From NCBI RefSeq assembly GCF_044324785.1, contig NZ_CP172127.1: a DNA stretch of 64,000 bases, one strand, 5' to 3'. This DNA comes from Escherichia coli. Its GTDB lineage: Bacteria > Pseudomonadota > Gammaproteobacteria > Enterobacterales > Enterobacteriaceae. Of this stretch, positions 15,001-18,000 are shown piece by piece. The position numbers are program-made. The first letter of the stretch is position 1; every line of letters starts with the position of its first letter.

Positions 15001-18000
15001 TGTAGTACCAGTTGATGCCAAATGTGCCGACAGTACAAAGAATACCAATGATGACAGCCCAGTCATTCAGGGAGAGAATGCCACCCATCGCAGTCAGTCC
15101 TCCGAAACTGTAACTGAACCATTCTCTGATTTTGTCCATACGGTACATGCTCTACCCCTTCATTGAGGGGATTTGCTCTATTTAATTAGGAATAAGGTCG
15201 ATTACTGATAGAACAAATCCAGGCTACTGTGTTTAGTAATCAGATTTGTTCGTGACCGATATGCACGGGCAAAACGGCATGAGGTTGTTAGCGCAGCCTC
15301 TTGCCACCCGCTTTCACGAAGGTCATGTGTAGAAGGCCGCAGCATAACTATCACTGATGAATTCAGGATAGCCAGTGGCTACGGCTCAGTTATGGTGCTG
15401 GTTAACGGACTTGAACCGCTAGCCATTCGCTTACAAGGCGACCGCTCTACCATTGGAGCTAAACCAGCATGTTTGGCGGGACAGCGTGGACTCGAACCAC
15501 GATAAGAAGGTTAACAGCCTTCCGTAATGACCTTTATACGACTGACCCGAATAAAAAAAGCCACCGTTGCAACTTAAGAGTCACTAACGGCAGCTTACCT
15601 TCTAATTATTGCTAAATGGATAATTGCATGTCAAGGCTTTTAACAGCAACATGCTTAACTTTCTCAACACGTTTACGCATTTTGAAAGCATTTTGCATTG
15701 GCTGGTACAAAACAAATAACGATGCTTTCAGGATGTCGTCAATTTCGTTTCTACAGGTTGCCAGTGAAGGTTTTCTCCATCCCTCGCCACCACGTCCACA
15801 CATCTTGCGTGGCTTTGCAGTCGCGTGATAGTAGGATGCAATTGCTCGCTTAGATGAACCATGAGCGTAGTAGCTGAGGAGGATGCCAAAGGCTTTCTTG
15901 TCAATGCACATGACGGAATCGACGACCTGAGAAATCAACATTCCATCATCATCATTGCACATTGGCCTTGTCATAACTCTTCCCGGCTCTACGCTCTCCA
16001 TGAACTTCGCTATTACGCTGCTCATGCGCTTTTCCAGACGACCTGAATAAACCCATGCGCCCCACAGTTCAAGCCAGCCATTCAGCCACTCATGCTGTTC
16101 TTTGGTGAGGTTTAGTTCTCTTATGCCCACTCGCCTTCTCCCTGTACCTGAATCAATGTGAGGTTTCCGCAGAACACTGAGCCGGTATCGATATACATTT
16201 GGTTGGCAAATTTAAGTGGTTTCACTGCTGGCGTATGACCAAAGATAAACGTGTCCGCGCCTTTAATTTCTTTCACGATCCCGTCTTGTGAGTTGCTGAT
16301 TCGTTCGCGGTTCCAGATTACCTGCTGATGATCAACTGGCTTTCCAAATTCGTATTCGTCACAAGGATAATCGGCGTGGCAGATGACATATTTTTTACCT
16401 TTGCTCACCAGTTCGATGATTAACGGAAGTTCTTCTGCTTTATGGGCAAGAGCTTTAGCCAGAATTTCTTTGTCGTAATCGAGATTAAAGAACCAACTAC
16501 CGCCATTAAGCAGCCAGTGATTGACGTTTCCACGCTCTGATAAGCCATCAATCATCATTTGCTCATGGTTTCCACGTACAGCTCGGAACCAGGGGAATGT
16601 GATTAATTCCAGACATTCGACGTTCTCTGTACCGCGATCGACCAAATCGCCAACCGAGATAAGCAGGTCTTTTTTGGTGTCGAATCCTATCGTCTCCAGT
16701 TTTTTCATCAGGTTCGTGTAGCATCCGTGCAGATCGCCAACTACCCAAATATTTCGGTATTTGCTGCCATCAATTCTTTCGTAATAGCGCATCTCTTTCA
16801 CTCCATCCGCGATGAACCATGAGAACGTCGTTGACGATGGCGTGCATTTTCCCGTCTTTATCATCAACGTATTTTCTGACCGTACCGCGACTACATTTCA
16901 GTCTGCGTGCTACTTCTGTCTGGTTTCCGTATGCTTCAACGAGCATGTCTGGAATGGTTTTTACTGAGAACGTCATGCGGCCTCACTTCTGCTATTTCGC
17001 AGGTCTTTGAGTTTCTGTTGGTACTCTGCCTTGATCGCCTTGCACTCTTCGACAGTCCAGCGATGGCGGTTATGGTTTGATTCGATTTCGTCTACTGCTT
17101 CCTGCCCGATCCGGTTAATCAGTTCGACGCGATACGGAACGAGATTTCCGCTTTTATGCTGGTTGCACACCACGCATTGCTTGTGAATATTGCGTTCATC
17201 AAATCGGAGTTGAGGTGCCGCAGCAGTTGTCCGGTAATGCCCGGCATCCCACTGAGCAGACGTGAGCGTTCCGCATGAGATACATGGTAAGTCGCGGTCT
17301 CTTTCTCTGATGAAGGCGTTTACGGCTTGTTGGGCTTGTTTAATCCAGTAACTGCGGGGCTTTAAGGCGAGTTTTCGAATCTTAAGTTTATCTTTCTGTT
17401 TCTGCTCCTCTCGTCGTCGTTTCTTCTCTGCTGCTTTTTCCGCTTTTTCGCGTTCTTTGCTTCGTCATTCGAGTGCTATCTTGGTTCCACACTCTGGAGA
17501 GCACCACCACTGATTAGCGAATGCAGGGTGAAACCATTCCCGGCATTCATCGTTTTTACATCGTCTTCGCGCTGGTTTAGCCATTATGGTTCGCTCCAGT
17601 AATTCTCAATTGCAGCAGCCATTCTCTGCATCCACTCTGCCAGCTTTAACGCGGCTTCTCTTTCAGAACCACATTTAGGGAAATCCTTCATTTCCATGCT
17701 GGCCTTATATGTTCTGAATGCCAGGTCTCCGGTAATAACCAGCTCCTGATCAAGCACAGAGCGTTTATTCCGGTGTTGAACGTAATAGACAGATTCAGTC
17801 CGCATTTCTTCTCTGTCTTTTTTGAAGGAAATAAGCTCAGAGAAATCACTCATCGTCTTCTTCCTCGTACATTGAGCTATTCGGATCGCTCATCAGTTCT
17901 GCGCAGCAATCGGCGCACACGTGAACTTCCAGCACATGCAGCTTCTGACCGCAGTTAGCGCACGTTAAAGCCCGCTCGACGCTTTCTTTCTGGTATTGAA

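Follow-up and report, generated by a model that had tools for sequence, protein, structure and literature searches.

Among the lambdoid phages, a close described counterpart of the locus studied here is found in phage 21 (GenBank OL657228; Guo, Kainz and Roberts 1991; PMC12445682), in which the late antiterminator gene Q, the promoter PR', the terminator tR', a tRNA-Asn gene, a tRNA-Thr gene and the lysis genes follow one another, and whose record annotates pR', the Q-binding element (QBE), the start site, a pause element, the terminator, tRNA-Asn, tRNA-Thr and the holin. The record of Sf6 carries the same annotated series with the remark 'similar to phage 21', and the paper describing phage SfI notes the tRNA pair also in Sf6, ST64T, PS3 and phage 21. 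We analysed a stretch of 64,000 nucleotides from Escherichia coli (assembly GCF_044324785.1, contig NZ_CP172127.1), here called the window, in which a P22-like (Lederbergvirus-type) prophage carries the same arrangement on the minus strand, with a tRNA-Asn(GUU) gene and a tRNA-Thr(UGU) gene placed between Q and the lysis genes. The pair is already known from the phage 21, Sf6 and BTP1 records, from hundreds of E. coli genomes and from the literature. Our results indicate with near certainty that these are two functional phage tRNA genes within a Q21-type late module, and their best explanation as a whole is probably that they are functional tRNAs of the late transcript which would keep ACA decoding going.

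A search of the whole window with ARAGORN yielded three tRNAs, Thr(tgt) at 15393-15468, Asn(gtt) at 15474-15548, and Thr(cgt) at 30446-30521. The first two agree in coordinates, strand, and anticodons with the two adjacent minus-strand tRNAs (TGT/Thr and GTT/Asn) that an earlier note had read from the sequence; the note had proposed this predictor as a check, and neither a missing match nor a different anticodon was encountered. The tRNA-Asn gene (15474..15548, minus strand, 75 nt, with a G73 discriminator) and the tRNA-Thr gene (15393..15468, minus strand, 76 nt) both encode their 3' CCA and are separated by the 5-nt spacer AACAU (15469..15473, minus strand). Both matched the Rfam family RF00005 over model positions 1-71 of 71, with 55.3 bits (E 3e-9) for tRNA-Asn and 61.2 bits (E 8e-11) for tRNA-Thr, at a gathering score of 29. 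The identity rules of tRNA-Asn and its synthetase AsnRS comprise G34, U35, U36, and G73, and those of tRNA-Thr comprise G1-C72, C2-G71, G35, and U36; all of these elements are present in the respective window genes.

The earlier note had further described an acceptor-stem U-U mismatch and a weak D stem in tRNA-Asn, and had raised the possibility that this gene is degenerate. Both structural features were borne out by the Rfam alignment, which places a non-canonical U4·U69 in the acceptor stem and a non-canonical U13·U22 in an A/U-rich D stem of three pairs. Together with an Rfam score below that of tRNA-Thr and with one record from the Prokaryotic Genome Annotation Pipeline (PGAP) that lists tRNA-Thr alone, they speak for a decaying pseudo-tRNA alongside a functional Thr gene. 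We consider this reading highly improbable and reject it, and the suggestion of the note is contradicted on four grounds: the score, which lies well above the Rfam threshold, the conservation of the gene, its compensatory changes, and a D stem that is shared with a host tRNA. Of the two genes, tRNA-Asn is the better conserved, with 100% identity to its counterparts in phage 21, Sf6, BTP1, phage L, and JLK-2012, and it is constant across phages whose flanks diverge by 3-12% or share no detectable similarity. In Tbat2_3, a Flyfo siphovirus, the flanks have no detectable similarity to the window and tRNA-Asn differs at one base, so that only the tRNAs are conserved.

Among 22 distinct variants of tRNA-Asn, the pairs 5:68, 6:67, 7:66, and 28:42 change on both sides with pairing kept, U4·U69 is retained in 20 and becomes a G·U wobble in the other two, and U13·U22 is invariant. 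Both retrieval patterns fixed parts of the tRNA-Asn sequence, and its variation is therefore under-sampled. In a covariation test, five pairs with changes on both sides were found in each of the two tRNAs, a value reached in none of 500 shuffles, with slid controls giving 0-1. In tRNA-Thr the five covarying pairs stand beside a G27·A43 mismatch that is invariant in all 23 distinct variants. The D stem of tRNA-Asn, GUAU/UUAC with U13·U22, is that of the host tRNA-Gly(UCC) gene glyT, and the body as a whole is 72% identical to host glyT and 63% identical to host asnT, the likeness to glyT lying in the D arm and the 4-nt variable loop. The likeness hints that the Asn identity elements sit on a scaffold of Gly type. 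Recent capture of host tRNA genes was ruled out, as host asnT and host thrU are only 63% and 70% identical to the respective phage genes. Expression of the pair has been reported for Salmonella phage BTP1, whose tRNA-Asn is identical to that of the window and whose tRNA-Thr is the phage 21 allele (Thr21); both tRNA genes were among the highly expressed loci, and the lytic operon begins directly after them (PMC7067206).

Where one partner of the pair has decayed, as in phage L and JLK-2012, the decayed one is Thr: in both phages ARAGORN still calls tRNA-Asn and no longer calls the second tRNA. In Salmonella phage L (ST64T type), the Thr slot is occupied by a 72-nt sequence annotated as 'tRNA-Leu (TAA)' (891-962 of the retrieved stretch), in which the acceptor ends of Thr are kept and the D and anticodon regions are rewritten; this appears to be a Thr gene that has decayed or been re-assigned, beside a perfectly conserved Asn. 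In Escherichia phage JLK-2012 (891-1044 of the retrieved stretch), the second tRNA is chimeric, its 5' third corresponding to phage Thr and the remainder being host thrU-like, with an anticodon arm ACUGA/UCA.. of the host type, and after it comes a tRNA-Gly(UCC) that is almost the same as host glyT, which suggests recombination with a host operon of the thrU-tyrU-glyT type. In Tbat2_3 (895-970 of the retrieved stretch), in Klebsiella phage Mulock, and in 8 viral contigs, an inserted tRNA-Phe(GAA) separates Asn from Thr.

The possible role of tRNA-Thr was approached through its anticodon arm. Govande et al. 2025 (PMC12445682) showed that phage Thr(UGU) tRNAs rescue the toxicity of P2 OLD, and that tRNA-Thr21 of phage 21 protects against P2 OLD and resists cleavage; resistance needs an altered CNG motif (C28U/G42A in Thr21) plus a shortened stem. 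According to a 2026 preprint, plating of OLD-sensitive phages is restored by the Thr(UGU) of HK446, a lambdoid phage; between the HK446 gene and that of the window, 2 of 76 bases differ. The window tRNA-Thr is identical in 74 of 76 positions to the allele of phage 21, BTP1, and Sf6, differing only at two unpaired positions, 26 (A to G) and 47 (G to C), so that the window has G26 and C47 and phage 21 has A26 and G47. Its anticodon arm (positions 27-43), GUCGC-CUUGUAA-GCGAA, is the same as that of Thr21. The corresponding arm of host thrU, ACUGA-CUUGUAA-UCAGU, contains the triplets CUG (28-30) and CAG (40-42), whereas the window gene has UCG and CGA at these places, without a CNG triplet on either strand, and these differences therefore amount to C28U/G42A, the features of Thr21. 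The shortening of the stem at 27:43 is likewise present as the unpaired G27·A43. The identity of the arms therefore places the window tRNA-Thr among nuclease-resistant tRNAs of a class that has been characterised by experiment, and judged from its sequence it probably acts as a nuclease-resistant decoder of ACA.

The classical view of phage tRNAs is that they only boost the decoders of codons preferred by the phage, without any anti-nuclease role. Codon usage of the late genes and the host, a comparison also proposed in the earlier note, was determined from greedy open reading frame (ORF) calls, with the window's host side standing for the host. Of the Thr codons, ACA accounts for 29% in late genes (15.8 per thousand codons) and 34% in early genes, compared with 15% (9.0 per thousand) on the host side; for late genes versus the host side, the odds ratio is 2.3 (p = 2e-5). 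This enrichment, which is about 1.8-fold when ACA is counted per thousand codons and about 2-fold within the Thr codons, is in favour of codon supplementation, as are the published result for SfI, where the same ACA bias was read as codon supply, and the single thrU gene in the K-12 region compared, tRNA-ThrU being the ACA reader of the host. Asn codons, however, are not significantly enriched (48 per thousand in the phage versus 42 in the host, p = 0.10), and codon supply therefore does not explain tRNA-Asn and was rejected as the reason for its presence. The SfI paper also found no Asn bias and called the significance of tRNA-Asn unclear. Codon supplementation leaves unexplained, in addition, the invariant 27·43 mismatch and the loss of both CNG triplets in the Thr arm, and in the OLD experiments host tRNA-ThrU gave little or no protection whereas the phage alleles were protective. 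As the sole explanation, we regard it as rather unlikely.

A second nuclease bears on both members of the pair. The PARIS effector AriB cleaves the host tRNAs Lys(UUU) and Thr(UGU) and, to a lesser extent, Asn(GUU) at U36AAUC|N41, a change of U39 abolishes cleavage, and contacts distal to the cleavage site are also needed (PMC12409363). In the host genes, the sites derived here are UAAUCA in thrU and UAAUCC in asnT, and their agreement with the AriB paper validates our position numbering. The window genes are substituted at this site, with UAAGCG in tRNA-Thr and UAACCU in tRNA-Asn, so that position 39 is G39 in the former and C39 in the latter, which also has U41. The anticodon arm of tRNA-Asn, GAAGG-CUGUUAA-CCUUC, differs from that of host asnT, GCGGA-CUGUUAA-UCCGU, in having AAG and CUU at 28-30 and 40-42 in place of CGG and CCG, and its changes are thus analogous to those of the window tRNA-Thr. 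By this analogy, tRNA-Asn may tentatively be seen as an anti-nuclease partner of tRNA-Thr, directed to the secondary target tRNA-Asn. Virulent phage T5 offers a comparison: it has tRNAs with the same anticodons UGU and GUU and with substitutions at position 39 by the AriB cleavage site (PMC11464382, PMC12409363), and T5 Lys, Thr, and Asn together neutralise PARIS, T5 Thr and Asn having G39 (PMC12409363). T5 differs from the two-tRNA window cassette in carrying about 24 tRNAs, among them the Lys(UUU) that the cassette lacks, and its tRNA sequences are unrelated to those of the window (55-62% identity).

From these comparisons, a broader proposal can be drawn, namely that Asn(GUU) and Thr(UGU) form a two-part counter-defence cassette of phage 21, of P22-like groups and, independently, of P1, directed against OLD/PARIS-class Toprim tRNases that P2-like prophages and P4-like satellites carry, and that the tRNA-Gly(UCC)-type body of tRNA-Asn was re-tooled, by an Asn anticodon and G73, to escape nucleases recognising host tRNA-Asn; this is possible but doubtful. 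Interference with RecBCD belongs to the class of cues that activate OLD, and the prophage encodes the anti-RecBCD protein Abc2, which was counted in favour of evasion of OLD, Abc2 being only a candidate for the OLD trigger. P1 resembles the window in that Asn(GUU) is directly followed by Thr(UGU) (positions 425-578 of the retrieved P1 stretch), in a context that differs by having no Q module; P1 tRNA-Thr is 83% identical to the window Thr, and P1 tRNA-Asn only 59%.

Several observations weigh against an anti-nuclease role. The resistance of the window tRNA-Thr is predicted from the identity of its anticodon arm. No tRNA-Lys(UUU), the main target of AriB, was found by ARAGORN in the whole window; of the major AriB targets, only Thr and Asn are supplied, and the cassette alone therefore cannot neutralise a B185-type PARIS. 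In general, tRNAs often lack U at position 39, so that the position-39 substitutions are weak evidence. In the 2026 preprint, a single Thr tRNA rescued neither lambda nor OLD toxicity in recB-deficient cells, and Asn was not among the top OLD targets. The missing enrichment of Asn codons given above counts on the same side. In six tRNA-Asn variants from viral contigs, C28-G42 is found and CAG/CUG triplets are restored. Unlike the window genes, P1 tRNA-Asn, from a similar Asn-Thr tandem, retains a perfect UAAUCA site with U39-C40-A41, and P1 tRNA-Thr keeps both CNG triplets. At the DNA level (megablast), P2 old was present in 17 of 5,426 complete E. coli genomes, compared with 368 that carry the cassette; that single allele therefore cannot account for the frequency of the cassette, and P2 old is unlikely to be its common selective agent, the search having covered P2 old and not diverged OLD or AriB homologues. 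We found no paper linking a lambdoid tRNA-Asn to a defence system.

The position of the pair is that of a late-operon leader. The earlier note had placed the tRNAs between Q and the lysis genes, in a leader where lambdoid phages frequently carry tRNAs, and this agrees with the window layout and with the phage 21 and Sf6 records. The Q gene (15612..16130, minus strand) encodes a late antiterminator of the Q21 family with 172 residues (Pfam Phage_antitermQ, E 1e-25), and in a phmmer search against the PDB its residues 1-162 matched 6jnx and 6p18, the solved structures of Q21 (E about 1e-91). The late promoter PR' (15605..15634, minus strand), with TTGACA, an 18-nt spacer, and AATAAT, was detected by a consensus scan (11 of 12 matches) and aligns with pR' and QBE as annotated in phage 21 and with P R' of Sf6. 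Within about 50 nt of it lies the intrinsic terminator tR' (15549..15596, minus strand), which in the minimum free energy (MFE) fold consists of a 17-bp hairpin (15596-15558) and a U-run (15557-15549), UUUUUAUU. Its sequence is identical to the annotated tR' of phage 21 and Sf6, and its U-run ends one to two bases upstream of G1 of tRNA-Asn, so that the tRNAs come directly after the terminator. About 245 nt beyond tRNA-Thr, the holin gene (14945..15148, minus strand; Pfam Phage_holin_2_3, E 4e-21) is the first protein gene of the late transcript, and homologous records carry the same label.

In comparison with phage 21, tR' and tRNA-Asn are identical, whereas the holin is of the HP1 family in the window and the S21 pinholin in phage 21, and Q has 172 residues in the window and 162 in phage 21. 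The two also differ in the Q-binding region: between the -35 and -10 elements of PR', at the position of the phage 21 QBE, the window has the P22-like Sf6/phage L variant AATTATCC / ATTTAGCA, and the phage 21 element ATTGAGCA / AATGAGCA is absent at the aligned window position. The stretches compared for this difference were 1428-1456 of the retrieved phage 21 sequence and 15605-15634 of the window. The window late module is thus a sister allele of the phage 21 module, presumably matched to its own 172-residue Q, and with a Q that is 10 residues longer it probably represents a distinct Q/QBE specificity pair inside the Q21 family.

The layout, with what is known of phage 21, suggests how the tRNAs would be made. 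As tR' abuts tRNA-Asn, no space is left for a promoter serving the tRNAs alone, and transcripts that reach the tRNAs would therefore start at PR' and cross tR'. RNA polymerase would start at PR' and, without Q, would stop at tR' just before tRNA-Asn; polymerase loaded with Q would pass tR' and both tRNA genes and continue into the holin, endolysin, Rz, and head genes. First tRNA-Asn and then tRNA-Thr would be the earliest products of the late transcript, and host RNase P and 3' processing enzymes would free them with CCA already present. The likely benefit would be that decoding of ACA, and of AAC/AAU, is kept going during late protein synthesis, the decoding of ACA being the step that the Toprim tRNases P2 OLD and PARIS AriB knock out.

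The 156-bp pair occurs in 368 of the 5,426 complete E. coli genomes, where PGAP labels tRNA-Thr and tRNA-Asn. Salmonella phages P6, BTP1, SPN9CC, and Oslo, and likewise E. coli prophages, share 97-98% identity with the window in the kilobase that surrounds the tRNAs, and most records with this identity annotate both tRNAs. Over the kilobase from Q to the holin, the same level of identity to the window is seen in the P22-like Sf6, BTP1, SPN9CC, vB_SosS_Oslo, and HK446, whose differences from the window are allelic and minor and several of whose records annotate both tRNAs. The Asn acceptor sequence retrieved 120 viral contigs, of which 109 contain the Asn-Thr tandem; AACAT or AATAT is the Asn-Thr spacer in 118 viral contigs, and the pair also occurs in siphovirus and Klebsiella phage backgrounds. 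Several phage records (for example, OP265889.1 and KY709687.1) have a 'hypothetical protein' over or in place of both tRNA genes, and in many others both tRNA genes are unannotated.

The ends of homology are mosaic, that with Sf6 stopping at 15153 and that with phage 21 at 15331, and the block from tR' to the tRNAs is the conserved piece that joins different Q alleles to holins of at least three types. Both facts would suit a block kept mainly as a linker, either for RNA processing, with RNase P sites that part the leader from the lysis mRNA, or for recombination, as homology for the reassortment of Q and lysis genes. A mere processing signal would not need the anticodons, identity elements, and T-loops that are conserved here, in Tbat2_3 the tRNAs are conserved and the flanks are not, and a near-identical Thr allele decodes in vivo; we therefore hold this explanation to be very unlikely. 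Functional tRNAs that keep ACA decoding going remain the preferred reading. Other tRNA species occur at the same late-leader position in Shiga toxin (Stx) phages; phage 933W, with ileZ-argN-argO downstream of Q/PR', is an instance. These tRNAs (Ile, Arg), which accompany another type of Q than that of the window, are classically explained as a supply of rare-codon decoders, and Stx phages match only the first 36 query bases, the tail of tR'. The tRNA gene ileX near stx2 is cited in PMC3636060.

The prophage that contains the module runs past the left end of the window. Its assignment follows from Pfam matches of its proteins to P22_CoatProtein (E 3e-142), P22_portal (E 7e-179), and Inj_translocase (E 5e-109); a DnaB-type helicase, replication protein O, and an S24 repressor were also matched. 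At its other end, an integrase gene (29271-30431, Pfam Phage_integrase) adjoins thrW, the host tRNA-Thr(CGU) gene (30446..30521, minus strand), which is the attachment site of the prophage and was found intact (ARAGORN; full-length Rfam match, 71.8 bits). Integration at a Thr tRNA gene invites the explanation that the phage tRNA-Thr compensates for thrW function lost on integration, and the 2026 preprint suggests compensation at the integration-site tRNA for HK446. This was rejected: thrW is undamaged, and a prophage of E. coli KE40, whose integrase abuts ybhC and not thrW, has the same cassette, as do the siphovirus and Klebsiella phages mentioned above. The phage anticodon is, moreover, UGU and not CGU, and the explanation is silent on tRNA-Asn. 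We regard it as extremely improbable.

The chromosomal flank beside thrW, proBA-phoE-crl-frsA (31000-35000), is at best 98.2% identical to any of the 5,426 complete E. coli genomes, and for this reason the host seems to be a somewhat divergent Escherichia lineage, apparently unrepresented among those genomes. Further along the host side (54411-60815, minus strand), a 1,409-residue Rhs-repeat protein and an adjacent 702-residue VgrG-like protein with Phage_GPD and Gp5 C-terminal domains are encoded, and from its domains this pair looks like a type VI secretion effector locus. Within the prophage, the Abc2-type anti-RecBCD protein of P22 is encoded at 28404-28700 (plus strand; Pfam PF11043, E 8e-60), with a Rad52-family annealase (27167-27874) and SSB (27875-28390) as gene neighbours. 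Downstream of the holin, the lysis genes continue with a phage lysozyme-type endolysin (14470..14973, minus strand; Pfam Phage_lysozyme, E 3e-45) and the Rz spanin (13944..14417, minus strand; Pfam Phage_lysis, E 5e-34), and between the lysis genes and the terminase lies an ORF of 161 residues with T5orf172 and MUG113 domains (13118-13603, minus strand), where BTP1 has rha.

As a discovery, the pair carries little weight, since it has already been annotated and described in SfI, Sf6, ST64T, PS3, and phage 21. It serves instead as a clear illustration of an old annotation whose meaning has shifted, the class to which the Thr gene belongs being now known as a nuclease-resistant replacement for the host tRNA destroyed by P2 OLD. 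The role of the equally conserved tRNA-Asn with its Gly-like body is the one point worth an experiment, and assays for both PARIS and OLD now exist.

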